From the IMG/VR virus record IMGVR_UViG_3300025151_000001, positions 1-64,000 of that record: a stretch of DNA of 64,000 bases; one strand, written 5' to 3'. Positions 1 to 20,598 of this stretch are shown one piece after another (positions within the stretch are counted from its first letter, which is position 1; the number at the start of each line of letters is the position of its first letter). The translations under genes were made by a program, and so were the position numbers. This DNA comes from a virus. The notes beneath the pieces were generated by a model. The model worked only from the letters and a program-made list of their open reading frames with translations, made no database searches and was not told the origin of the DNA.

Positions 1-374
1 ACTTTAATTTCAATCGTATCTTTTGGAATTCCAAGTGTTACGAATTCCGCTTTGTATTTCTTTCTAATGTATTCTTGGATTTGTTCTTCACTCATACCAG
101 ACTTTACCAACTTTTCAATCTTAACGTTTATGTATGGGATTGAAATTTCATAATGGCCCCGATTCGGTGAAGGTTGACCTCTAGCATTCGCTTGAGTATC
201 TTCTCGCATTAAATTTTTTAATTTTTGGTCCATATTTTGAATCAAATGTGTATCAAGTTCTCTAAGAGCCCTTTCTTTTTCCATCTTAACGTTTTCACGA
301 CTTTCTCTAGCCATTTGTCTGCCTGCCCTTCGTGTTCCAAAAGGAGCCTTTCTTAGTTCATCTTTCCAACTCAT
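1..374 (-). CDS. Hypothetical protein, 3' end outside the window; N-terminus MSWKDELRK
   Basis: Manual translation from ATG at 374 is open to position 1; AGGTGA Shine-Dalgarno upstream. Absent from the ORF track because it has no stop in the window. Confidence 0.8.
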   Translation of the reverse strand, partial: MSWKDELRKAPFGTRRAGRQMARESRENVKMEKERALRELDTHLIQNMDQKLKNLMREDTQANARGQPSPNRGHYEISIPYINVKIEKLVKSGMSEEQIQEYIRKKYKAEFVTLGIPKDTIEIK

Positions 375-810: not shown

Positions 811-1020
811 GTAACCCTCTCGGATTAGCCTAGTCTTGTCTAGCATATAATGATGTCGCTTGGCTAAGTTTTTGCCCCGAAATAGCGCGTTTAACTCACG
901 AAGTTGACGTTAAATCGTTCAATTTGCAAAGTTAAAATAAAAATAAAATTTGGAACAAAGCCATATGGTTGTAGGGCTTTGTATCTAGAATCCCATAAAT
1001 GCAAATTGTGTGATTCTGGT

Positions 1021-1290
1021 ATGAAGCAAGAAACATCCTGCTATGATTGTGGAACTGAGATGGATATTGAGATGAATGGTCGAATCGTTGATATCGAAGA
1101 CGTGATGATTCTGTGCGCCGATTGCGACCACTACCGCGAAATCCAGAAGGAGAGAAATAAGGCTCAATGGAAGAAGCATCTTCTCGAACTCGGAAAGAAT
1201 GTGGTTGAGTTGTGGGATGCAGCAGGCGAACCTGAAAACGCAGACGTTTTCCTCAAGGCCAACAACCTCACCCGTGAAGATTTGGTTTGA
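1021..1290 (+). CDS. Small Zn-finger protein (CxxC...CxxC)
   Basis: CYDCG and CADCD motifs; start chosen from promoter spacing; followed by a hairpin. Confidence 0.7.
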   Translation: MKQETSCYDCGTEMDIEMNGRIVDIEDVMILCADCDHYREIQKERNKAQWKKHLLELGKNVVELWDAAGEPENADVFLKANNLTREDLV

Positions 1291-1312
1291 CGGCCCAAAA
1301 CAACGCAACTCG

Positions 1313-1360
1313 GTCCCTGCCCTCAATCCTTCGGGATTGGGGGTGGGGTTTTCATTTTTA
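1313..1360 (+). terminator. GC-rich hairpin plus T-run closing cassette 1
   Basis: CCCTGCCCTCAATCC-TTCG-GGATTGGGGGTGGGG followed by TTTTCATTTTT. Confidence 0.7.
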
Positions 1361-1471
1361 TTCAAACCATATGGTTTAGTCTTTGAATTGTGAAACAATA
1401 AACCCTAAACTACCTATCCTGACGAATTCTATCGTCTCCGGGGTGGAGAATAGCCAACAAAGGTGAAAAAC

Positions 1472-1954
1472 ATGAACACAGAAAAGTATGAAATGAATCT
1501 GAATAAGATTCGTGAATGGATGAAGATGAACGATGCGGGTTCATTGGGTGTTGTGCTTGAAGCACAAATCGCCCTTCCCGTTGAAAACGATGATGACCGC
1601 GTTCGGGTTTGGACGGCTATTCGCGCTATTGCGAAGATGCTCCCAAATTCGCCAATTCGCCCCGGTGCCGCTTCCAAGTATAGCCCCGAGGTTCAAGCGA
1701 CTTTGGACTCTATTGCGAATGGTGTCCGAACTGCTGCGCGTAACTACTTCAAGGCGGGTATGCATAATCTTTTGCGAATGCACGGAAAGTCTGGTGGCGG
1801 CCTTTATGCCGATGCTGATGAATTCGGTGATGCAGAAGCAAAGAAGGTCGTTAACGACCTTAAGCGCCGAATGCGCGAAGGTATCTGGGATGGAACCATT
1901 CCGGGTCTTGATACGCAAACCTTCCCCGTTCTGGAGGTGAACGAAGAAGAGTGA
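1472..1954 (+). CDS. Hypothetical protein, paralog family A copy 1
   Basis: GGTGA SD; shares NDAG..VVL.AQ, W.AIRAIAKMLPN..IRPG, HGK.GG.YA.A and G.W.G with 3815-4330. Confidence 0.85.
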   Translation: MNTEKYEMNLNKIREWMKMNDAGSLGVVLEAQIALPVENDDDRVRVWTAIRAIAKMLPNSPIRPGAASKYSPEVQATLDSIANGVRTAARNYFKAGMHNLLRMHGKSGGGLYADADEFGDAEAKKVVNDLKRRMREGIWDGTIPGLDTQTFPVLEVNEEE

Positions 1955-2095
1955 ATCGTGGCGGATTCCACCCCGGGGGCCCCTTTAGCAGATAATGCTA
2001 TTGGGGTTCCCGTTTCACGGGCAAAGGCCGAACCATATGGTATGTTCTTTGGTTACTTGTTCATACCCTAAAACGTCATTATGTAGGGATTTATC

Positions 2096-2332
2096 ATGGT
2101 TTTATGTAACTGTGCAGAGTGTTTGAAAGAATTTTACGCTGAAGGTGCTGACGCTTATACTGATACACATGGCTTGGACCACCATCCAAGGTGTAATCAT
2201 ATTACGCAGAAGAATTTCAGCGTGATTAGCGACTACATTGAAGTTGACTATTATGGGACCGTTGAAAAAGTTATTCTGTGGCAGGGCTATAATTGCACCT
2301 GTGAAGAAGAATACGACAAGGACGAATCCTGA
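2096..2332 (+). CDS. Small Cys/His-rich acidic protein
   Basis: CNCAEC, HHPRC, CTC; fills one cassette. Confidence 0.7.
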   Translation: MVLCNCAECLKEFYAEGADAYTDTHGLDHHPRCNHITQKNFSVISDYIEVDYYGTVEKVILWQGYNCTCEEEYDKDES

Positions 2333-2461
2333 AAAAGCCCAAAAAACCCTGTATTGGGTTTTTCCTCCTCGTTGGGGTTTTTTCCTCAAAGATAGAACCA
2401 TATGGTTGCTATGCTTTGTCGCTTGTAGCAACCCTATCTACTGTAATTGCTGCATTTTACC

Positions 2462-2800
2462 ATGTCTAAGAAACAAATCGAATACATTGTCGAAAACACG
2501 CGCTCGCACTCGTCAACCTCGTTTGAAACACGGTTTAGAAAACTCTTTTCGGAAAGCAGGTCTGATTCTGCGTTCTCGATGGCCCTTGAGAAGAAGACCG
2601 AGGAAGAAATCAGTATGATTGAGAGCGCGATTGTTGCTTATGTGAGTTTAGAAAAAAAACTGAGGGACACTAAGAGGCAGTTGAACAAAGCGAGTGACGA
2701 CTACATGAAACTTCACAATGAAGCGAGGCGAAACAGGAAAACCCTTGATTCGCTCAACTTCATGTTTCATCAACTACACCAAGTAGGCGACGAATACTGA
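2462..2800 (+). CDS. Coiled-coil hypothetical protein
   Basis: Fills one cassette; heptad-like C-terminal half. Confidence 0.7.
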   Translation: MSKKQIEYIVENTRSHSSTSFETRFRKLFSESRSDSAFSMALEKKTEEEISMIESAIVAYVSLEKKLRDTKRQLNKASDDYMKLHNEARRNRKTLDSLNFMFHQLHQVGDEY

Positions 2801-2918
2801 ACAAACCCGCACGGGTGGCCGAACCTCGGGGGTCTGCGGACCTCCGGGGTTCCTTTCGTCAGACCAAAGTGACTCGAACCATATGGTTGCTGACTTTGGA
2901 TTAAACCCCAAATTTATT

Positions 2919-3209
2919 AAAAATGGGGGTGGTGAGCCGGACTGAATACCGACATGAATGAAGCAGTTTAGGTCCGCTTTGACCGTTGCTCTCCTAGTTC
3001 CTTGGTCTAGAAGCCATTCAATCACATTCACCGACGAATCCGCTAAGAAACGCGCCCTTTTGGGGTCTTACCACGGCATAAATCCACAAGTGCGCCACGC
3101 ATTCACGCATCTTCACTATAGAATTCTGGCCCGCTAAAGCCGAATGTGTCCCTTAACCCCGAGCAGGGGTTATTCGGGCATCACCTGTGCCGGTGGCCGC
3201 CGACACAGT
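2919..3209 (-). ncRNA. Candidate structured ncRNA (~290 nt) in an inverted cassette
   Basis: No credible ORF; several helices; stems pair fully (with G-U) only on the minus strand; promoter-like ACCTC ~27 nt upstream; ends in a T-run. Confidence 0.55.
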
Positions 3210-3314
3210 AATATTGCCACAAAAGGATATGTTTGAGGTTATAACAAAGCCGAACCATATGGTATGGCCTTTGAATGTAATATACCCCTATCAAATGGAA
3301 TAGATGTGTTTTAG

Positions 3315-3690
3315 TGGAGCATGGGGGACAATGACCCCACCACCCGGAAACTCAGCATTGACTCGCTGAAGGGATTCCGGTAAAACGTCGCTGACCGCGT
3401 GAAAGTCTGTAACTGAGCAATCACACATTGTTGCTCCCGTAGCATCCTCAATCAATACGGTAAAAATTTGGTGGGGTAGGTGAAGCGTAAGCGAGTATAG
3501 GCGATTTGAACACTTTGGACAGAAGGTCGAAGGCCGATAATCCTCATTGTTAGAAAAGCCAAAAAACGCCTCATAGTGGTCCTGTAAGCCGCAGCCCTAA
3601 TATAATTGTATTGCAATAGAAAAATGAATCATGATTCAATGCTACCTCTGGGGCGGTTCATTCATCAATGGACCTCGGGGTAGTAATTTC
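3315..3690 (+). ncRNA. Candidate large structured ncRNA (~300-370 nt)
   Basis: Nested helices 3334-3342/3469-3477, 3344-3349/3375-3380, 3352-3356/3365-3369, 3415-3420/3431-3436, 3437-3441/3456-3460, 3499-3503/3567-3571; no ORF of 60 aa or more. Confidence 0.6.
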
Positions 3691-3814
3691 ATTCAAAGGC
3701 TACTACCATATGGTTTGTGCTTTGTAAGTGTAACGCAAACCCCATATGTAATTGGTTGAATGCATTTTACTGTCTAAGGGGGACAACCAAAGGACACACA
3801 TCGGAGAGATTAAC

Positions 3815-4330
3815 ATGACCGAAAAAGACGAAAACTATTGGAACGAAAAAACGCAAACGATTGATGCGTGGATGGAACACAACGACGCCGGAGCGATGGC
3901 GGTTGTTCTTAACGCACAGAATGACCTTTTGAAGCAGAATGTTGGAAATCCTACGGAAGCGGACCAGATTTGGGCCGCGATTCGTGCGATTGCCAAGATG
4001 CTTCCAAACACTTTCATTCGCCCCGGACGCCAACCGGGCTTGAGTCCAGAACTTCAAGCATCTGTGGATTCTGTGGCGCATTGTGTCGAAACTGCCTATG
4101 CGGAATTCTATGAGGCCCATTGGGAACTTCTGTCCGCTATCGTCCTTCCTCACGGAAAGACCGGTGGTCACTACGCAAACGCTCAGGATGCGGCTTCATA
4201 CATGAATGGCCGCACCACGCGCATCCTGAAGGAAGCCATGAAGGATGGCCGTTGGGAAGGCAAGTCGGAAGACGGAATGCCTATCGAATTGGCTGCTCCC
4301 CCAATGCCGGAGGTGGCAGAAGAGGAGTGA
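3815..4330 (+). CDS. Hypothetical protein, paralog family A copy 2
   Basis: Clear similarity to 1472-1954; GGAGAG SD. Confidence 0.85.
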   Translation: MTEKDENYWNEKTQTIDAWMEHNDAGAMAVVLNAQNDLLKQNVGNPTEADQIWAAIRAIAKMLPNTFIRPGRQPGLSPELQASVDSVAHCVETAYAEFYEAHWELLSAIVLPHGKTGGHYANAQDAASYMNGRTTRILKEAMKDGRWEGKSEDGMPIELAAPPMPEVAEEE

Positions 4331-4459
4331 ATTGTCTAAGGAAGTCCCCCTTAGGCCCCTTTGTTCGCCTTTGGGCGTTCAAGTGGGGTTAGTGCAAAGC
4401 AAACCATATGGTAGTAACTTGCGGATTAGCGGGCTACCCCGACTAACCCCCCTTTTGGG

Positions 4460-4597
4460 TCAGCAACGCGTTCCTCTACACCACCTTTCCTCATCTGCTC
4501 GCTTTTCACACCCATACATCGAAATCACACCATCACAGGTATAGCACCTCTGAATGCCTTTTCCACAGTTTTCTTGATTACAGCACTTTTTCGCCAT
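4460..4597 (-). CDS. 45-aa Cys-rich microprotein MAKKCCNQENCGKGIQRCYTCDGVISMYGCEKRADEERWCRGTRC
   Basis: Manual translation; 8 Cys; ACCTTAAG box ~27 nt upstream on the minus strand. Confidence 0.65.
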   Translation of the reverse strand: MAKKCCNQENCGKGIQRCYTCDGVISMYGCEKRADEERWCRGTRC

Positions 4598-4734
4598 GTT
4601 TAGACGTTAGGTCACTAATACTTAAGGTTGTTCCTTAATTCCTTAATTACGTCTTTGACTCTAATTAAGACTCAACCATATGGTAGTAGGCTTTGTTTTA
4701 CTACCCCCATGAATAGCGTCAAAAACCGATTAAC

Positions 4735-4929
4735 ATGAAGATGGAGAGGTTCGAATTGGCTATGAAGCACCTTTTGAAAATGCATGAGAAGGTCATTGAT
4801 GATGCTATCCAACACCATGCCGTGAATAAGTCCTTCACAACGTATGCAAGCGTTGAGGCCCTTATCGCTCAAACTAAAGAAGATGCGGCCTTTGTTCTGA
4901 TGCACGGCAATATTGACGAGGAAGAGTGA
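4735..4929 (+). CDS. Small hypothetical protein
   Basis: ORF track; start matches promoter spacing. Confidence 0.7.
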   Translation: MKMERFELAMKHLLKMHEKVIDDAIQHHAVNKSFTTYASVEALIAQTKEDAAFVLMHGNIDEEE

Positions 4930-4933
4930 TAAA

Positions 4934-5170
4934 ATGAAGCAAGAAGAATCCGTTAGATTTGCTGAAGCCTTTGGATATAAACTGTATCAAGATGGCCTTC
5001 TGCCGCCTTTTGAAGAAAAGGGCATCTATGCAGCAATTGAAGCATTCTGTGGAGCGTGCATGGAAAACAACAACCGCTTCGATGAGGTGCTTTTCTTAGA
5101 AAAAGTGCATGAATTCCGTAACAAATTGATTCAAGAAGATTTGGATAATCATTACAGAGAAGAGGAGTGA
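4934..5170 (+). CDS. Small hypothetical protein, paralog family B (FAE.F...AFC.AC...N.RFDE)
   Basis: Similar to 5468-5668 and 11881-12072. Confidence 0.75.
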   Translation: MKQEESVRFAEAFGYKLYQDGLLPPFEEKGIYAAIEAFCGACMENNNRFDEVLFLEKVHEFRNKLIQEDLDNHYREEE

Positions 5171-5291
5171 AAAGTTAAAAACCCGATGACCCACCCTTAG
5201 GGGTGGCGAGGTCTTAAAATCAAAGTAAGACCATATGGTAGCAGGGCTTTGTTTCTGACTACCCTATCAAATGAGTTTGATTAACATTAAC

Positions 5292-5471
5292 ATGGCAACA
5301 GATTGGACACCTACGAATGTGCTTGAAGGATGGGAAGAGGTTTGGGTCACTTTCCACAGCGAAGAATTGAACAAAGATGTGACCATTGAGGTATGCTCCG
5401 TTGAAGACCTCATTTATCGCATCATTGGCGATTCTTCAGAAGTCGCGGCACGAATTGCAGAGGAGGAATGA
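5292..5471 (+). CDS. Small acidic hypothetical protein
   Basis: ORF track; start MATDW chosen from promoter spacing. Confidence 0.7.
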   Translation: MATDWTPTNVLEGWEEVWVTFHSEELNKDVTIEVCSVEDLIYRIIGDSSEVAARIAEEE

Positions 5472-5668
5472 ATATGGGAATGACCAGAAAGCACTTTATC
5501 ATCTTTGCAGAAGAATTTTCTAAGTTGAAGAACCGGATGGAAACGTCTTCCTATGGTTTGGAGCCTTGGACGGTATATTCTGAAATGCTCGTCGCTTTTT
5601 GCAACGCTGCAAGTGAAGTTAACGATCGATTCGACGAAGAACGGTTCATTGAGGCGGTGAATGAATAA
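5468..5668 (+). CDS. Small hypothetical protein, paralog family B (MTRKHF...NDRFDEERF)
   Basis: ATGA overlap with upstream gene; paralog similarity. Confidence 0.75.
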   Translation: MNMGMTRKHFIIFAEEFSKLKNRMETSSYGLEPWTVYSEMLVAFCNAASEVNDRFDEERFIEAVNE

Positions 5669-5808
5669 ATCAATAAGAAAACCAAAAAATAACCCTTCAA
5701 GGGTTGTTTTTCCTTCTATGTGGGGTTTTATTTTTCAAAGTCACATATTACCATATGGTAGTATGCTTTGTTTTCTACCCCATGAATAAAACCAAAAAGA
5801 AGTAAGTG

Positions 5809-5976
5809 ATGAACATCAAGAGGTTTCAAAAACTGAGGCATGAATACTTGGAAAAATATTTGCATTGTTCTCTTTCGTGGGAAATGGAATTCACATTTGA
5901 ACAGTTCCTTCTATTGGAACTTGAGGCCTATGTAGCCCTATTTCATAACCTTAAAGCCGAGGAGGAAGAAGAATGA
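5809..5976 (+). CDS. 55-aa hypothetical protein (MNIKRFQ...KAEEEEE)
   Basis: Manual translation; promoter spacing. Confidence 0.65.
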   Translation: MNIKRFQKLRHEYLEKYLHCSLSWEMEFTFEQFLLLELEAYVALFHNLKAEEEEE

Positions 5977-6140
5977 CCACGAAACAAAACGAACTTCTGA
6001 AAGAGATTAAAATGCTCAAGCGAGCAATCCGAAACATTGGGCATACGCCCGAAACGGAGAAAATCATTCAGGCACATAACCTTCTGGTTGAAATGTGCGT
6101 GGAACAATTTGAAGAGTTGAGGAAGGTGGAGTCAAGATGA
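5973..6140 (+). CDS. 55-aa hypothetical protein (MTTKQNE...KVESR)
   Basis: Manual translation; ATGA coupling and GGAGG upstream. Confidence 0.65.
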   Translation: MTTKQNELLKEIKMLKRAIRNIGHTPETEKIIQAHNLLVEMCVEQFEELRKVESR

Positions 6141-6389
6141 TGGAGAGGTTTAAGGAGAAATAAGACCGATGACCCCGGCCCATTTGGGTCGGGCGAGGTC
6201 TTATCACAAAGACAGACCATATGGTTTGAAACACAGAGAAAGAATCAAAATGGCTTAATCCCTACCCTCTCCCTATTATTGAATAGGTAGAAATAATCAT
6301 CCCCTTGATTTCCACACCATTTGTTAGGGTGCTTTCAATTGGAGATATGAGTATGAGTATAATCATATGGTATATACTATAGTTAAGTA

Positions 6390-6905
6390 AATGATGTTTC
6401 TAATCGAGGGCGGGCCTTAGAATAATACAAACATCAAGAAACTGAGGGCTTGTGCAACAGAACCGAGAGAGTTCTATATTATTATATTTTTATCATTATT
6501 ATACTACTACTACTACTACTACTACACACAGAGAGGGAATCACACAGGGAGAGAGAGAAAGACCCCCCCTTAGAAAATTAGAAAAATAGAATCGAAGTTT
6601 TTCTCAAAGGTCTGAAGGGTTTGTGCTGCACAGACCCTCAGAATCTCGATTCAGGCCCCCTTAGAATTTTCTTAGAAGGTTCGGGTGGGAAAAGAGTGCA
6701 TTTTTCAAAAGTTGATTTTCGAGCATTGTTAATGATTGTTTTAAATTTGATTATCTTAGAAAGCAATATAAGAGATTCCCTCCTCAATCCTAAAGTTTCT
6801 TTGCTCTTATGTAACACTTCTAACTAGGTTCTATTGTTAAGTGTGCCCTTCTCAGGGCATTAGACTCACCTTGGTTATTAGAATCTTTAGAAAGATTAGA
6901 AACTT
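6390..6905. repeat. Non-coding repeat-rich region: (TAC)8, GA/CA runs, many TTAGAA/TTCTAA copies
   Basis: (TAC)8 at 6502-6525; TTAGAA clusters near 6417, 6570-6585, 6661-6677, 6757, 6878-6902. Confidence 0.8.
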
Positions 6906-7017
6906 CTGATGTGAACATTCAGAGCGAATCACCTTCATATAGGGTAAAGCCGTCCACGAATTGTCCAAAGCGACCCACCGAAATATGAGGAAGCGGAGGA
7001 CAGGATTAGTGAACAAA

Positions 7018-7509
7018 ATGGATGATATGACTTGGCAAAGCCTAGTAATTGAAGTAAATGAATACCTTGCAGCCGATGACCAACTTGATGCTTCCCTGCG
7101 TCAAGTTGTGGAATTGAACCTGCAAGTAGGAACGAACAACCCAACAGAGCGAGATGCTGCGACAAATGCGTTAAAGGCGCTTTTGAAGGGCCGTGACGGA
7201 ACTCCTTTCCGCCGTGGTCAAAAGTCGTCTGTTCCCGCTGCGGTTCGTGTTGCGATTGACCGTATTGCCGGTGTTGTGGAAGAAGGCGCTTTGGCGTATT
7301 ACAACCACGATGCGGTAATTGCTGCGGTTTCCTTCCAACACGCTCGCTCTGGCGGCGGACTCTATGAGTCTGGTGAGGATTACGCTGTTGCTCAGGCAAA
7401 GCGCGTTAAAACTGCTCTTGGTAAGAAATACAAGGAAGGCGCTTGGGATGGTTCCCTCGAAAGCCTCCTTTCTGCCGAGGACGTTGCCGATTCCGGCGAC
7501 ATGGAGTGA
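7018..7509 (+). CDS. Hypothetical protein, divergent paralog family A copy 3
   Basis: ALKALL...PFRRG...IDRIA...HARSGGGLY...GAWDGS aligns with family A. Confidence 0.8.
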   Translation: MDDMTWQSLVIEVNEYLAADDQLDASLRQVVELNLQVGTNNPTERDAATNALKALLKGRDGTPFRRGQKSSVPAAVRVAIDRIAGVVEEGALAYYNHDAVIAAVSFQHARSGGGLYESGEDYAVAQAKRVKTALGKKYKEGAWDGSLESLLSAEDVADSGDME

Positions 7510-13143: not shown

Positions 13144-13300
13144 CCTTTTCTCAGGAGTAATTTAAATGATAAAACTAACGTTTCAACTTATCGGGTGGTC
13201 TTTTGTGATTGCCTTTTTTGTGATTCTTATTCCTATTTTGTTTATACTAGATGACCATATGGGTTTTTCTGGTGAAGAAGAGTTTTGATTTGGTGATAAA

Positions 13301-13556: not shown

Positions 13557-14024
13557 ATGGGATTTAGAAAGAACGATGAAGAAGCGCAAAGGCGTCGTGA
13601 CCTCCGAGCAAATGAAATTGCTTTGGAATATGCAAATAAGAAGGGCATTACCCCAACTGTGATTATGGGTAGTGAACTACATACTGTTGGTATGCCTATT
13701 GCTATAAATTGTTCAACTTGCATCGAAGAAGGTCTAGACCATAGAGATTCTCTTTTGATGATTGCTCATCACACAAATCCAATGAAAGATGAAGATTGGT
13801 ATACGAATCCTATTCTAAATGTGGAATGTATGAATGGTCATAAAGCATTCATTAAACTGAACACTATTCTTCATACGGGCAAATATCCCGTCCACCTTCG
13901 ATTTTTGAATGGTGGCGTTGCTTGGTTAGAAGAGGGAATTTCTATTGGGAATATTCCTTCCCTTAGAGAAGAAGGCTATTGGCCTTATAGCGATGATGAA
14001 CCGTCAATGGGGGTTATGAATTGA
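13557..14024 (+). CDS. Hypothetical protein (CxxC...CxxxH)
   Basis: Operon packing; ORF track. Confidence 0.7.
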   Translation: MGFRKNDEEAQRRRDLRANEIALEYANKKGITPTVIMGSELHTVGMPIAINCSTCIEEGLDHRDSLLMIAHHTNPMKDEDWYTNPILNVECMNGHKAFIKLNTILHTGKYPVHLRFLNGGVAWLEEGISIGNIPSLREEGYWPYSDDEPSMGVMN

Positions 14025-15280
14025 AATTAAGAAAACTTGGAAATGGTCATTGGGACCGCAAACTTATTGAGCGTATGCTTGAAATTTCTATTTCTCCTGA
14101 TATTGATGAGGCGCTGAAAGAATGGAAAGCCACGGGTGAATGTTGGTGGCCTTCCCTTAACAATACTAATCCTCCTGAATGGGTTCGTGAAAGTCGAACA
14201 GGTGTTGGATATTGTCTCTGTGGCCATGCTATCTATTACCACTTTGCTATTGAGAACACCGAGAATGGAACGAAAGAATGCGTTGGTTCTGACCATATTA
14301 ACGCTTACATGATTGCCCGTGCAATTGCAGATGAATTGGGTGTCGCACCTGAAACCATTAGTGATGATAAGATTGCTGATTGGATTAAGGTTCGCGTTAA
14401 GAACATGAAGGCAGATGCTTGGTGGGAAGAGAACGGAATTTGGTGGAACGACATGATTGATGGCCTTCGTCCTGTTGACCATTGGTTGAATTGGAAGAAT
14501 ACAGATGAACATGAATATGATTACGTTTATCGTTGGCATATCGTGAAGAAAATTCCTCGAAAGCGAGCAGAAGGAAAGTTTGGTGAAAGGAACTATCAAA
14601 TGGCTTCTGTGTTTTGGCGTTGGGATAATCCAGAAAACTCTCGTAATCAAATGGCTAGTCGCGGCTATCCGAATGATGCTCTTATCGCTGACGTGACTTA
14701 CCTTTCTTTTAAGAAGCCTGCTTATCTTAAGTATAAAGAAAGTCAAGATAAGAGAAAGGAAAACCGTCTTGAACAAATTCGCCTTGATGAAATTGCACGC
14801 CTTAAGCGAAAAAAGCGACAGGATGAAGAAAGAAAGGAAAGAGAGCGCCTTCAAGAGATTCAAAGGAAGAAGCATGAGGAAAATAGGGCATTGTCTCTTG
14901 ATGAATTACAACAAAGCATGACTTTTAGAAAGATGTGTAAGTTTTATGGCTCTCCTACGATTATTTCTGCCTATGCTTTTGATAGTGCTTCTTTGATAAA
15001 GTTGCGTAACTTTGCAGATTCCCTCTCTAAAGGAGAGCAGTTAGATGATTACGCTCTTAAGCAACTTGCATCAATTATGAGCGATAAGCGCAGAGTAACT
15101 GAAAAGCAAGTTAAGTTTATCAAGGACTTGGGTGGGGAAATTAGAGGCCCCATCACAAGATTTGAGGCTAGCACCTACATTGAAACTCTAATGGCTGAAA
15201 GGGACGGCAGGGATGCAGTAGCCGAACCAACGAATCAGCCTTATAGCCTGAGCGACCGTCCACAGAATAGGAGAGATTGA
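14021..15280 (+). CDS. Hypothetical protein with CxCGH...VGSDH metal motif, coiled coil and C-terminal TEKQ..EAS module
   Basis: CLCGHAI...CVGSDHI; charged helix; directly upstream of the Ubl gene. Confidence 0.75.
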   Translation: MKLRKLGNGHWDRKLIERMLEISISPDIDEALKEWKATGECWWPSLNNTNPPEWVRESRTGVGYCLCGHAIYYHFAIENTENGTKECVGSDHINAYMIARAIADELGVAPETISDDKIADWIKVRVKNMKADAWWEENGIWWNDMIDGLRPVDHWLNWKNTDEHEYDYVYRWHIVKKIPRKRAEGKFGERNYQMASVFWRWDNPENSRNQMASRGYPNDALIADVTYLSFKKPAYLKYKESQDKRKENRLEQIRLDEIARLKRKKRQDEERKERERLQEIQRKKHEENRALSLDELQQSMTFRKMCKFYGSPTIISAYAFDSASLIKLRNFADSLSKGEQLDDYALKQLASIMSDKRRVTEKQVKFIKDLGGEIRGPITRFEASTYIETLMAERDGRDAVAEPTNQPYSLSDRPQNRRD

Positions 15281-18641: not shown

Positions 18642-19778
18642 ATGGAATTAGAAAAAAATGTTAAAATTTATAAGCCTGACGATACTAGAGGGTTTTATAG
18701 CACAGTATTACTTCTTGGAGAAAATCATCCAAGTAGGATTGAAATACACCCTTCTAGGGCATTGAAAGACCCGGTTCAAGGAGCAATTGCTTCTGAGTTA
18801 AAACTTATTCTTCAGGGTAAGCACAGTCGTTGTTGGTTCTCTGTTTCTGCAAAACCTAAAACAATCACAATCGGTAGCCTACCTATCCTTATTCAAAAGC
18901 AAGGTAGTCGCTATCTTCTAAATGGTCAGGCGCTCAGTCTTAATGAAATTACGAACACTTTGGCGCGAGTAATGTATAAGAGTTGCTTCACTAACGACCA
19001 AGGACTTTTGATGAAGACTATGATTAGTTACATGAATATGCCAGAAAATGTTCGGTATGTTCTGGAGAATCGTCTTCCTTATTTCTTTTATGAGAACTTT
19101 AGGAAGATTGATGTTAGGCTTAACGTCATGCAAATTGAAGATGAGAAATGTGCCATTGAGATTTCAGATGGGGTATGGGGCGAAATTTCTTTCAAGGATT
19201 TGAATACGATGTGTAACTTCTATATCCACGGGAAGCAAAGGGGTTCATGGAAGTTTATTTCACCAGATGACCTTTACTTTAGGTTAGTTGGTGAGCAGAT
19301 TTCAGAATCAACTGAGAAAGTAATGCTTGAGTTTTTGAAGCAGAATCGTCAAAGTGACATTGTTGAAAAGAGAGCCGAAGAATTGATGATGGATTTGCAG
19401 AAACAATACCCTCAAAGAATTAAGATTGTTGAAGGAGAGGATGGAACTACCATGTATGTTCGAGGAAAGGGCTACGATTGGAAATTAACAGACAACAAAT
19501 ATAAGTCTGATATTCAACAAGTTAGCACATATGTCTGGCAACCGAACGGTGTGAAATCAAATTCAGAAACAAACGAAATTGAACTTTCTGAAGCAACTTG
19601 GCGAGGGCCAATTTGCATTGATAACATGGCTAGAGGTTCTTCTTTGGGCGACCAATTTGCTGCAAGAGCCCTTGCACTTCTAAATGACACTTTGACTATT
19701 CAAGTCGTGAATACAATTAAGCGTTACATCAACGCGAATGAAAATGAAAATAGGATTGATTGGCATGAAATGCGATGA
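18642..19778 (+). CDS. Hypothetical protein; C-terminal domain possibly E2-like
   Basis: Long ORF; TYVWQPN...GPICID resembles E2 HPN...GxICL; function tentative. Confidence 0.5.
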   Translation: MELEKNVKIYKPDDTRGFYSTVLLLGENHPSRIEIHPSRALKDPVQGAIASELKLILQGKHSRCWFSVSAKPKTITIGSLPILIQKQGSRYLLNGQALSLNEITNTLARVMYKSCFTNDQGLLMKTMISYMNMPENVRYVLENRLPYFFYENFRKIDVRLNVMQIEDEKCAIEISDGVWGEISFKDLNTMCNFYIHGKQRGSWKFISPDDLYFRLVGEQISESTEKVMLEFLKQNRQSDIVEKRAEELMMDLQKQYPQRIKIVEGEDGTTMYVRGKGYDWKLTDNKYKSDIQQVSTYVWQPNGVKSNSETNEIELSEATWRGPICIDNMARGSSLGDQFAARALALLNDTLTIQVVNTIKRYINANENENRIDWHEMR

Positions 19779-20598
19779 ATGTGGTTCGCGTAACAACACC
19801 TTCGATGAAAGAATGGGTGAACGCATTTGTGATGATTGCGGACTCGTTATTCAAGTCGAAGCCTTTGAAGAAACTGTTCGTCTAAGCATGGGCGAAGATG
19901 GTTCCTTTCGTTCCAAGGATTATGGTCTTGGTTCTGAAACTACCTTCATGAAGCGTGCAAAATCTTCAAGAAACGACTCTGAAAGAACACTAGAGAATGG
20001 TTATAGAGTCATGCGTATGGTAGTTTCATCTTTGAAGTTACCATTTAACATTAACGACAGATTAGAACAAATCTATCGTGAGTTGATTACTAAAGGTATT
20101 CTTTCTGGTTCTACCTTAGAAACAAGAGCAACAGCGATTGTCTACTACGCTTTGAAGGAAAATAGAACACCTGCAACCTTAAAAGAAGTCTGTGGTGAAT
20201 TCCAAGTCCAAAGCAAATTAGTTCGAAAACTAACTAGAAGAATTACTAGACATTATGGCAACAATGTATTAAGAAATGATGATTCCCATTTCTTAATGCA
20301 ACGTGCCATTGCGAATATTTCAAATGACCCTGCCTTTGTATCTCATTGTTTGCAGACATTTGAATTCTTTGAAAAACTAATGAAAGAATTAGATGAAAAT
20401 AAGACAAAGTTGCACTACGCAACAATGGTGTATTTTACATCATACATTCACAACTATCCATACTCAGCAACTTCGATTTCTAAAAATTTGAAGTGTTCTG
20501 CTAATGGAATCAGAATCTCCGGTAGGAGGTTGCTACCCCTAATTGGTCTAAAGGGAGTTGAGCAACTCAAAGGAATTGACCTAGAAAAATTGATGTGA
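19765..20598 (+). CDS. tfb: Transcription initiation factor B (TFIIB)-like protein
   Basis: Zn ribbon CDECGS...GERICDDCGLVI; GLGS; ERTL; cyclin repeats (A.AIVYYA...PATLKEV). Confidence 0.85.
   Translation: MKCDECGSRNNTFDERMGERICDDCGLVIQVEAFEETVRLSMGEDGSFRSKDYGLGSETTFMKRAKSSRNDSERTLENGYRVMRMVVSSLKLPFNINDRLEQIYRELITKGILSGSTLETRATAIVYYALKENRTPATLKEVCGEFQVQSKLVRKLTRRITRHYGNNVLRNDDSHFLMQRAIANISNDPAFVSHCLQTFEFFEKLMKELDENKTKLHYATMVYFTSYIHNYPYSATSISKNLKCSANGIRISGRRLLPLIGLKGVEQLKGIDLEKLM

Follow-up and report, generated by a model that had tools for sequence, protein, structure and literature searches.

The window analysed here (64,000 nucleotides of IMG/VR virus record IMGVR_UViG_3300025151_000001) contains, near its left end, a succession of small units separated by copies of a short palindrome, and this locus raises the question of whether whole units are exchanged between viruses at the palindrome or whether it serves mainly in their regulation. 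Judged from its genes, the window is part of the 92-kb genome of a group B magrovirus, an ocean virus with Marine Group II archaea as hosts. Encoded in this genome are XPF, RFC, a TFIIB/TFB homologue and a split family-B DNA polymerase, together with GroEL, ribonucleotide reductase and two ligases, and the matches of its capsid protein are limited to archaeal tailed viruses. This gene set agrees with the features given for group B magroviruses (viz. a head-tail structural module, archaeal-type replisome genes, split PolB, GroEL, ribonucleotide reductase, two ATP-dependent ligases of which one lies in the structural block, tRNA-Leu and tRNA-Arg; PMC5434244). The array opens the rightward (early/replication) gene block.

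The palindromic core CCATATGG occurs 13 times in the window, viz. 12 times in the array (at 961, 1367, 2033, 2398, 2879, 3255, 3706, 4404, 4676, 5231, 5751, and 6217) and once at 13255, against an expectation from shuffled windows of 0.52 copies on average and 2 at most; bases 64–92 kb of the genome hold no additional copies. The sequence-only reading had placed 12 cores ~270–700 bp apart in the array and one further core, without flanks, at 13255, and these counts and the measured spacing of 272–698 bp agree with it. Its statement that nearly all cores are flanked was slightly generous, because all 12 have at least one flank but CAAAG upstream and CTTTG downstream are both present at only 8. 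The core motif is not an artefact of the search: among CAAAG-N16-28-CTTTG stretches collected from related loci as a check (n = 370), 331 contain the exact core. The core comprises 8 bp within a 10-bp perfect dyad, with near-absolute invariance over hundreds of copies in diverged viruses, and the rare one-mismatch variants in the related loci lie mostly at the outer A/T of ACCATATGGT. What the junctions have in common is limited to this 10-mer, CAAAG/CTTTG and ACC; their spacers and stems vary between copies.

On the evidence of its layout, the region appears to be an array of about eleven autonomous gene cassettes, each with its own promoter. The features are as follows (junctions carry no strand; those marked "by core and flanks" were placed by core count and flank inspection).

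960–969: junction 1, left end of array, GCCATATGGT; CAAAG directly adjoins the core on the left, without a proper left hairpin
965–1370, plus: cassette C1; terminal hairpin, then TATA-like CCCATAAAT
1021–1290, plus: C1 ORF, 89 aa, Cys-rich
1315–1358: strong GC hairpin of C1 with T-run
1366–1375: junction 2, ACCATATGGT
1371–2036, plus: cassette C2; ORF 1472–1954, 160 aa, family A, with a Shine-Dalgarno sequence and a leader of ~100 nt
2032–2041: junction 3, by core and flanks
2037–2401, plus: cassette C3; hairpin GGTATG..CATACC, then CCTAAAA, then ORF 2096–2332 (78 aa, Cys-rich)
2397–2406: junction 4, by core and flanks
2402–2882, plus: cassette C4; hairpin GGTTGCTA..TAGCAACC (-6.4 kcal/mol, z -4.5), then CTATCTA, then ORF 2462–2800 (112 aa)
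2878–2887: junction 5, by core and flanks
2883–3258, minus: cassette C5, inverted; no credible ORF; manA-like structured RNA
3205–2926, minus: manA-like RNA of C5, 43.7 bits against a gathering score of 55.2, E 7.7e-9
3254–3263: junction 6, by core and flanks
3259–3709, plus: cassette C6; no credible ORF; hairpin GGTAT..ATACC and CCTATCAAA
3705–3714: junction 7, by core and flanks
3710–4407, plus: cassette C7; ORF 3815–4330, 171 aa, family A paralogue of C2
4403–4412: junction 8; CTTGC replaces CTTTG on the right side
4408–4679, minus: cassette C8, probably inverted; AACC, then TTAAGTATTAG, then 28 nt, then ATG
4597–4460, minus: C8 ORF, 45 aa, Cys-rich; orientation from the hairpin-to-ATG spacing rule
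4675–4684: junction 9; left side lacks CAAAG at its usual distance
4680–5234, plus: cassette C9; hairpin GGTAGTA..TACTACC; ORFs 4735–4929 (no Shine-Dalgarno sequence) and 4934–5170 (GAGGAAGAG just before it)
5230–5239: junction 10, by core and flanks
5235–5754, plus: cassette C10; ORFs 5292–5471 and 5474–5668
5750–5759: junction 11, by core and flanks
5755–6220, plus: cassette C11; ORFs 5809–5976 and 5973–6140
6216–6225: junction 12, right end of array; left half normal, right side without CTTTG or hairpin
6985–7509, plus: family A gene directly outside the array; modelled as all-helical, without a fold match

Each interval holds one or two small ORFs or no credible ORF, as had been described, and most intervals close with the GC-rich hairpin ascribed to the unit ends. 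The cassette proteins have no match to any Pfam family. The manA-like RNA of C5 has its 5' end ~33 nt past the minus-strand hairpin end and TATA-like box of this cassette. For C6, the hairpin and the box following it predict a transcript start near 3314, and its cargo is a candidate non-coding RNA; an Rfam search of C6 gave no matches.

A profile of 219 cassette starts anchored at the ATG is C-rich at -32 to -28 and A/T-rich at -27 to -22, with a pyrimidine at -1 and no Shine-Dalgarno sequence, and we infer that the TATA box after the start hairpin drives transcription of leaderless mRNA. Hairpin end and ATG are most often 27–28 nt apart; the centre of the palindrome precedes the ATG by ~53 nt, which places it roughly three helical turns from the TATA box. 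A cassette starts with the half-palindrome ATGGT, followed by a weak hairpin (a GGT-initiated stem, CTTTG in the loop and a 3' arm closing with ACC). At the expressed end, ACC leads directly into the TATA box, with the ATG 27–28 nt further on; one or two orphan ORFs or a structured RNA form the cargo. The unit closes with a GC-rich hairpin and then a terminal hairpin, the mirror image of the first, of which the last letters are ACCAT. The invariant ACCATATGGT arises where two cassettes abut, the ACCAT end of one meeting the ATGGT start of the next.

Each unit has terminal inverted repeats, both termini reading ATGGT, stem, CTTTG, stem, ACC, YYA; CTTTG is present at 92% of starts and 86% of ends, the hairpin at 55% of starts and 46% of ends, and TATATA at starts only. 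Each cassette end has a hairpin of its own (GGTnnn, a loop with CTTTG, nnnACC), the stems of which co-vary between copies: stems of at least 6 Watson-Crick pairs are formed by 27% of real half-elements vs. 8% of mixed hybrids, and stems of at least 7 by 15% vs. 2.4%. The CTTTG lies in the loop in 90% of hairpins, and for 16 of the 20 half-elements of the window, folding to minimum energy gives the anchored hairpin. As DNA these hairpins are thermodynamically weak (-0.5 to -6.4 kcal/mol, with z-scores mostly above -2.5), and their stem mismatches (G-T vs. A-C) favour neither strand once base composition is allowed for.

In integrons, the two halves of an attC site pair (R''/R', L''/L') around unpaired spacers, and a geometry of this kind had been suggested for the present element. 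This fold is not supported: real elements pair their left spacer with the right one less often than mixed pairs do, and extension of the palindrome beyond the 10-mer by at least 3 pairs is seen in 2% of real elements vs. 6.7% of mixed pairs. The spacers are non-complementary, as had been noted, and even less complementary than mixed pairs; CAAAG and CTTTG are uninformative in either direction because they never vary. The co-varying pairing falls within each half-element, so that each of the two abutting cassette ends forms a hairpin of its own.

Comparison of related viruses answers the first part of our question. The palindrome is the crossover point for exchange, gain, loss, permutation and inversion of whole cassettes, and the modular shuffling proposed from the sequence is borne out by alignment across relatives, in which the content, order and orientation of the units change exactly at CCATATGG. 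Of the alignment breakpoints, 23% fall no more than 15 nt from a core, against 5% at random. Between loci L036 and L096, which differ by replaced and extra cassettes, homology switches exactly at the core in 4 of the 6 junctions listed (4296, 4744, 7890, and 8472); some replacements have one breakpoint at the core and the other inside the cassette. Two neighbouring cassettes are swapped core to core between L098 and L123 (order A-B to B-A), and inversions of single cassettes distinguish L040 from L120, L083 from L113, and the window from L032. A single cassette is common to L077 and L098, the surroundings of which are otherwise unrelated, and all 8 cassettes of L100 and L118 are common and collinear; L045 and L059 are identical. 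Arrays thus persist while genomes diverge by a few per cent, which fits rare events and not a fast switch. Related archaeal viruses have in this way swapped, gained, lost, reordered and flipped whole small-gene units at the palindrome.

The same arrays are present on more than 119 IMG/VR contigs, and 596 Gb of cellular genomes gave chance single matches and one array on a probably mis-binned contig. Cassettes in both orientations are present in 41 of 64 arrays (an upper bound, from ORF calls); the window itself has two inverted cassettes, C5 and, probably, C8. Our search of the literature found no published description of such palindrome-joined cassette arrays.

The explanation that we consider somewhat better than even is that the array corresponds, in an archaeal virus, to the PeSL mobile regulatory cassettes, but with a palindromic junction that lets the cassettes work either way round. 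PeSLs are promoter-early stem-loop cassettes found where the genomes of T4-type phages are hyperplastic (Arbiol et al. 2010, PMC2839356; Comeau et al. 2014, PMC4122927). The junction would be a conserved boundary element, probably a site for a putative dimeric viral protein, and the general recombination and replication machinery of the virus would drive rare exchange (by reciprocal crossover, or by excision and re-insertion) as it does for PeSLs. The junction would channel this rare recombination because it is the sole sequence common to all cassettes, and a cassette would stay functional in either orientation, since the site reads the same when inverted and the promoter comes along with each unit.

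Both systems place a composite promoter and stem-loop between small orphan early genes concentrated in a plastic genome region; in both, the motif bounds insertions, deletions and replacements between relatives, and promoter and terminator move together with the gene they serve. Unlike the sigma-70 promoter of PeSLs, the magrovirus promoter is of archaeal TATA type and probably gives leaderless mRNA; its junctions share a strictly invariant 10-bp palindrome in place of ~100 bp of oriented similarity, and they are symmetric, with a mirror-image hairpin per cassette end, so that both orientations occur and inversion is possible. Mini-circles and promoter and terminator activity have been shown experimentally for PeSLs; the promoters and terminators of the magrovirus array are predicted from sequence. 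On our best reading, the array would differ from the known PeSL kind by its palindromic, orientation-neutral junction.

A parallel among archaeal tailed viruses is the haloarchaeal virus HGTV-1, for which, as cited in PMC3950731, Sencilo et al. (2013) reported a conserved TATA and inverted-repeat motif before most ORFs of one arm and likened it to PeSLs. In its sequence (KC292026, 128–143 kb), many of 34 small ORFs are preceded by a repeated motif (hairpin and TATA-like boxes) and then a promoter ~25 nt before the ATG. Like the magrovirus, HGTV-1 thus has a hairpin and a TATA-type promoter before small ORFs; unlike it, the HGTV-1 motif is a sequence-conserved, oriented repeat of ~100 nt with a fixed stem CTCCTCGTG..CACGAGGAG, lacking a palindromic junction and co-varying stems, and its units all point in the same direction.

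The PeSL comparison leaves one difficulty. Identity common to two junctions amounts to just ~10 bp and two pentamers, and for PeSLs a similarity of ~100 bp has been invoked for homologous recombination (PMC2839356); ordinary homologous recombination alone is therefore a weak explanation, because junction identity is far below this length. An 8-bp core that hardly ever varies, with hairpins of conserved structure at either cassette end, is rather what one would expect of a site recognised by a dedicated enzyme. We retain, as a doubtful second explanation, site-specific recombination of integron or shufflon type, in which an unrecognised viral or host enzyme would cut and rejoin inside the symmetric core of the hairpin-flanked junction, cassettes would be excised as circles and re-inserted or inverted, and the symmetric overlap would remove directionality. 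Besides core invariance in diverged viruses and the shortness of the common sequence, it is favoured by the exact switches of homology at the core, by the same hairpin on both cassette ends whether or not a promoter follows, and by the occurrence of replacement, insertion/deletion, permutation and in-place inversion, the exact set that a symmetric crossover site predicts. Against it stand the stability of arrays between genomes a few per cent apart, the second breakpoints inside cassettes, and the enzyme searches. No recombinase had been seen in the window, and none of five families (Phage_integrase, Resolvase, Y1_Tnp (Y1-HUH), TnpB-type Zn-ribbon, and Viral_Rep) was found in the 92-kb genome; the search for tyrosine, serine and HUH recombinases proposed in the sequence-only reading was thus negative genome-wide. 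PF00589 (tyrosine recombinase) gave no matches at E ≤ 1 while controls matched, and no modelled array-associated protein has a recombinase-like fold. We consider it unlikely that some viral or host enzyme, as yet unrecognised and outside the searched families, acts on the junction, recognising its symmetric core with the flanking structure-conserved hairpins, and moves promoter-bearing cassettes either way; if true, this would make the array an integron-like gene-capture system of archaeal viruses.

Integron arrays arise by attC x attC/attI recombination by IntI, and their cassettes are mostly promoterless, in one orientation and dependent on a common promoter Pc. The magrovirus array resembles them in its tandem cassettes, imperfectly symmetric sites, and changes of content and order exactly at the site, but its genome has no detected integrase, an attC-type fold is unsupported, and the cassettes have their own promoters, both orientations and a perfect-palindrome core. 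Shufflons (e.g. R64 Rci/sfx) reshuffle the 3' ends of one gene with a linked tyrosine recombinase at asymmetric sites; they likewise have clustered short sites between which single segments invert, whereas in the magrovirus it is entire independent genes that form the segments, and the recombinase searches were negative. Transposons and MITEs share terminal inverted repeats per unit; unlike them, the magrovirus genome has no cognate transposase match in the two families searched, PF01797 (Y1-HUH) and PF07282 (TnpB-associated), and no dispersed copies, all lying in one array except the flankless core at 13255.

A role of the palindrome chiefly as operator or upstream activating site, bound by a dimeric regulator common to all early cassettes, with exchange as an incidental by-product, is improbable. 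A perfect 10-bp dyad centred ~53 nt before the ATG lies where a putative activator site could sit, each unit has its own TATA-type promoter, the element is confined to viruses, and the virus encodes several Zn-ribbon proteins alongside its own TFB homologue. However, promoter position follows the hairpin end and not the core (the core-to-hairpin-end spacing has an SD of 5 nt), promoterless cassette ends keep the half-site, CTTTG and hairpin, binding to double-stranded DNA leaves the stem co-variation unexplained, and so invariant a core would be unusual for a binding site. Least probable is an RNA-level element, in which the two hairpins around AUAU would serve read-through early transcripts as signals for processing, termination or stabilisation, like the RNase III sites between T7 early genes: the stems co-vary with conserved loops and the element is present between every pair of units beside GC hairpins and T-runs, but the start-side hairpin lies upstream of the transcript under the predicted leaderless promoter, the stem mismatches lack strand preference, the element does not differ between cassettes of either orientation, and the DNA-level exchange at the core is left unexplained.

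Among the proteins encoded near the arrays, family A is the most frequent, being found at 53 of ~119 loci.

Our analyses have identified 13 copies of the palindromic core CCATATGG in the 64-kb window: a cluster of 12 at 961-6217 and a single copy at 13255. Shuffled sequence contains a mean of 0.52 and a maximum of 2, and the 28 kb of the genome beyond the window are free of the core. These counts confirm the palindrome-bounded array of gene cassettes proposed by the sequence-only reading. The 12 cores are spaced 272-698 bp apart and bound 11 cassettes (C1-C11), and the contents ascribed to the intervals are borne out as well, viz. 1-2 small ORFs, or none, with a GC-rich hairpin closing most of them. 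The further claim that nearly all cores are flanked by CAAAG upstream and CTTTG downstream holds for at least one of the two flanks, which is present at all 12 cores, but not for both together, which are present at 8. The core sequence is close to invariant: exact CCATATGG is present inside 331 of the 370 CAAAG-N16-28-CTTTG stretches of related loci, and the variants with one mismatch are few and changed mostly in the outer A or T. The array occupies the point of divergence between a leftward block and the rightward block of early/replication genes, and it is a real feature that is conserved across its virus family.

The virus record is 92,240 bp in length, of which the window comprises the first 64 kb, and carries a 99-bp terminal repeat. 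It encodes a TFIIB/TFB homologue, an RFC-like clamp loader, a split family-B DNA polymerase, an XPF/ERCC4 protein with HhH, a PD-(D/E)XK nuclease, a primase, GroEL, ribonucleotide reductase, two ATP-dependent ligases, a head-tail structural block, tRNA-Leu and tRNA-Arg. Archaeal tailed viruses provide the sole matches of its capsid protein in the named-phage collection. A split PolB, GroEL, ribonucleotide reductase, tRNA-Leu, tRNA-Arg and a further ligase encoded within the structural block are features of the group B magroviruses, which infect Marine Group II archaea (PMC5434244). The archaeal gene set and these group B features therefore indicate TATA/BRE transcription logic and not sigma-70; sigma-70, Bacteroidetes, N4-type hairpin and crAss-type virion RNA polymerase promoters were dropped after Pfam gave the archaeal gene set. 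The TFB/TFIIB homologue could redirect host transcription:

19738-20598, plus strand: TFB/TFIIB homologue (Zn ribbon, cyclin repeat; scores above the Pfam cut-offs)

Few surface-ocean viruses are more abundant than the magroviruses, and we know of no cultures of them or of their hosts. The flanked element (CAAAG-N-ACCATATGGT-N-CTTTG) is present on at least 119 IMG/VR contigs, many of them 90-96 kb in length, and the arrays reach 14 cores in a single fetched stretch. A scan of bacterial and archaeal genomes (596 Gb) returned 37 single matches in unrelated bacteria, which is approximately the chance level, and one array of five copies on a contig of 14.7 kb (L153; NZ_NZTP01000027.1), which is assigned to an Altibacter MAG and is probably a mis-binned magrovirus fragment. 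The flanked element belongs to viruses and not to cells, and its being missing from these cellular genomes led us to reject a host promoter or host-factor site.

The nearest locus to the window (L032) is only ~70% identical, and because the window is thus without a close relative, recent events were taken from other pairs of the related loci fetched for comparison (L-numbers, nearly all IMG/VR contigs). In L036 and L096 (~89% identical), near-identity ends exactly at the cores at 4296, 4744, 7890 and 8472, with unrelated sequence just beyond; the intervening cassette is replaced and one partner contains extra cassettes. Two neighbouring cassettes occur as A-B in L098 and as B-A in L123, both alignments spanning core to core. 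L040 and L120 differ by the inversion of a single cassette whose flanks are collinear, as do L083 and L113 (~90% identical; checked base by base), and L032 carries window cassettes 6 and 7 each in the opposite orientation. The otherwise unrelated L077 and L098 have one cassette in common, at 86% identity from core to core. These cases of replacement, permutation, inversion and transfer establish that content, order and orientation change at the motif, which the sequence-only reading had proposed to check by alignment of relatives. An all-against-all comparison of the fetched loci placed 23% of the alignment breakpoints inside arrays no more than 15 nt from the centre of a core and 32.5% no more than 30 nt from it, versus 5 and 10.5%, respectively, for random positions. 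Several replacements have just one breakpoint at a core, and all eight cassettes of L100 and L118 are collinear at 90-99% identity; exchange events are rare relative to sequence divergence.

The nature of the junction emerges from its half-elements (one side of a junction, viz. GGT of the core, stem, CTTTG loop, stem and ACC), which were sorted according to whether a gene start or a gene end lay alongside. CTTTG is present at 92% of start and 86% of end termini and a hairpin at 55 and 46%, respectively; both kinds of termini share ACC followed by Y-Y-A, and the continuation T-A-T-A-T-A is found at start termini only. Since the same termini occur at both ends, each cassette possesses ~33-nt mirror-image terminal repeats and its own promoter, and the palindrome is simply the meeting point of two cassette ends. 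An ATG-anchored profile of 219 cassette starts is C-rich from -32 to -28, contains an A/T-rich box from -27 to -22 and a pyrimidine at -1, and lacks a Shine-Dalgarno sequence; the spacing between hairpin end and ATG has a sharp peak at 27-28 nt. On the basis of established knowledge of archaeal promoters, we infer that the cassette start is a BRE/TATA promoter that would give rise to a leaderless mRNA. Second genes within cassettes are preceded by GAGGAG ribosome-binding sites. A reading in which ATAT would serve as TATA box and ACCCYA as initiator was rejected, because the ATG-anchored profile puts ACC and TATA directly before the leaderless ATG.

The hairpin on either side of the core co-varies, its 5' arm opening with the GGT of the core, CTTTG lying in the loop and its 3' arm closing with ACC (e.g. 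GGTAGTA..TACTACC, GGTTGCTA..TAGCAACC and GGTATG..CATACC). When every 5' arm was matched in turn with the sequence downstream of it and with the corresponding sequence from other elements (mixed hybrids), stems of at least 6 Watson-Crick pairs were present in 27% of the real half-elements versus 8% of the hybrids, and stems of at least 7 pairs in 15 versus 2.4%. CTTTG is located in the loop of 90% of the hairpins (median loop 12 nt, median span 25 nt). When the 20 half-elements of the window were folded as single-stranded DNA, 16 had the anchored hairpin as their minimum-energy structure, and the stability of this hairpin is weak (-0.5 to -6.4 kcal/mol; z-scores mostly > -2.5). The attC-like fold suggested earlier, in which the left spacer pairs with the right, fails this kind of comparison, the palindrome extending beyond the 10-mer by at least 3 pairs in 2% of real versus 6.7% of mixed pairs. 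A strand-specific structure was also rejected: G-T versus A-C mismatches on the outward strand number 42:11, but 266:76 in mixed hybrids, and since the G-T excess equals the hybrid ratio it reflects base composition and provides no evidence for an RNA or single-strand role.

Two cassettes of the window are inverted, viz. C5 and, probably, C8. C5 contains a manA-like RNA, whose 5' end lies ~33 nt past a minus-strand hairpin end and TATA-like box, and a second match is found in the related locus L038:

3205-2926 (C5), minus strand: manA-like RNA, 43.7 bits versus a gathering score of 55.2, E 7.7e-9
2958-3192 of L038, minus strand: manA-like RNA, 46.4 bits versus a gathering score of 55.2, E about 1e-8

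Both matches are full-length to the Rfam model and below its gathering score. The RNA is the sole cargo of its cassette in two different viruses, starting ~50 nt from the adjoining core, and from these model matches structured RNAs of the manA-like kind appear to recur as cargo of magrovirus cassettes. The minus strand of C8 carries AACC-TTAAGTATTAG, and a Cys-rich ORF of 45 aa on that strand has its ATG 28 nt further along. Cassette 6 (3312-3700, plus strand) has a normal hairpin and TATA start, no credible ORF and no match in Rfam, and is a candidate for encoding a second non-coding RNA.

Among known systems, integrons are characterized by an integrase, the attC fold and promoterless cassettes, and on each of these the array fails as an integron. 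A dedicated enzyme recognising the hairpin-flanked core is the main rival explanation and, in our assessment, a rather doubtful one; in its favor are a very short shared sequence, an invariant core and hairpins that persist at promoter-less cassette ends. Six-frame searches of the whole genome for Phage_integrase, Resolvase, Y1_Tnp, TnpB-type Zn-ribbon and Viral_Rep found none, in agreement with the earlier remark that no recombinase is visible in the window, and comparison of the unannotated proteins with PHROGs, Pfam and NCBIfam gave nothing relevant. General recombination/repair nucleases and ligases are encoded by the virus. The protein most often encoded within or beside arrays belongs to a recurrent family (family A), whose arrangement in cassettes and just outside the array is repeated in many relatives; a second protein is conserved near arrays:

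1472-1954, plus strand: family A paralogue, inside a cassette (C2)
3815-4330, plus strand: family A paralogue, inside a cassette (C7)
6985-7509, plus strand: family A paralogue, just outside the array
14021-15280, plus strand: 419-aa protein, conserved near arrays in 28 loci

Family A is predicted to be an all-helical bundle (pLDDT 90). The 419-aa protein (pLDDT 85), in which C65, C67 and H74 are invariant, has no family match, and neither model has a significant fold match (Foldseek E at least 0.8, VIA-align Z at most 4.5). The models may represent a new fold, and the 419-aa protein is a candidate new nucleic-acid enzyme.

We lean toward a mechanism like that of the promoter-early stem-loops (PeSLs), the mobile regulatory cassettes of T4-type phages, which follow the same logic as the magrovirus array but are oriented, sigma-70-based and ~100 bp long (PMC2839356, PMC4122927). 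In the PeSL-like mechanism, the junction would be a conserved boundary element, probably protein-bound. We propose that, because it is the sole sequence common to all cassettes, it channels rare recombination; either orientation would be viable through the palindromic site and the cassette-borne promoters. The haloarchaeal virus HGTV-1 has a PeSL-like motif (PMC3950731); in the sequence itself (KC292026, 128-143 kb) this is a long repeat that is oriented and conserved in sequence, its hairpin is fixed and, unlike in the magrovirus array, there is no palindromic junction. Neither a palindrome nor a promoter is mentioned in the magrovirus literature consulted (PMC5434244, PMC11706807, PMC10160649), and a search of the available literature for the motif string returned no relevant use.

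The PeSL idea would thereby reach beyond T4-type phages to an entire family of archaeal viruses, with a design not described for PeSLs, viz. a palindromic junction that makes cassettes orientation-independent. The array reveals how viruses trade new genes, and the accessory "ORFan" genes of magroviruses gain a clear grammar covering the limits of a unit, its promoter, its orientation and its cargo, with structured RNAs among the latter. The defined 10-bp site with its hairpins provides a bait for seeking the recognising protein, and the exact core is a practical marker for locating magrovirus arrays and excising complete cassettes from metagenomes.

Three observations concern the surroundings of the array. 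A non-coding block of ~90 nt (404-495) with the inverted repeat A6TGGCC...GCCCAT6 is ~75-80% identical across ~17 related loci; its position is outside the arrays, 0.4-1.5 kb from their first core. Past the last junction, a 700-bp non-coding tract (6225-6960) with (TAC)8, CA/GA runs and TTAGAA/TTCTAA repeats, partly conserved at 72-76% in two related loci (L032 and L091), could be an origin or a further boundary element. Lastly, a MxW(x)DILK leader opens many leftward genes beside the array (genome 89-92 kb and window 1-374, minus strand).
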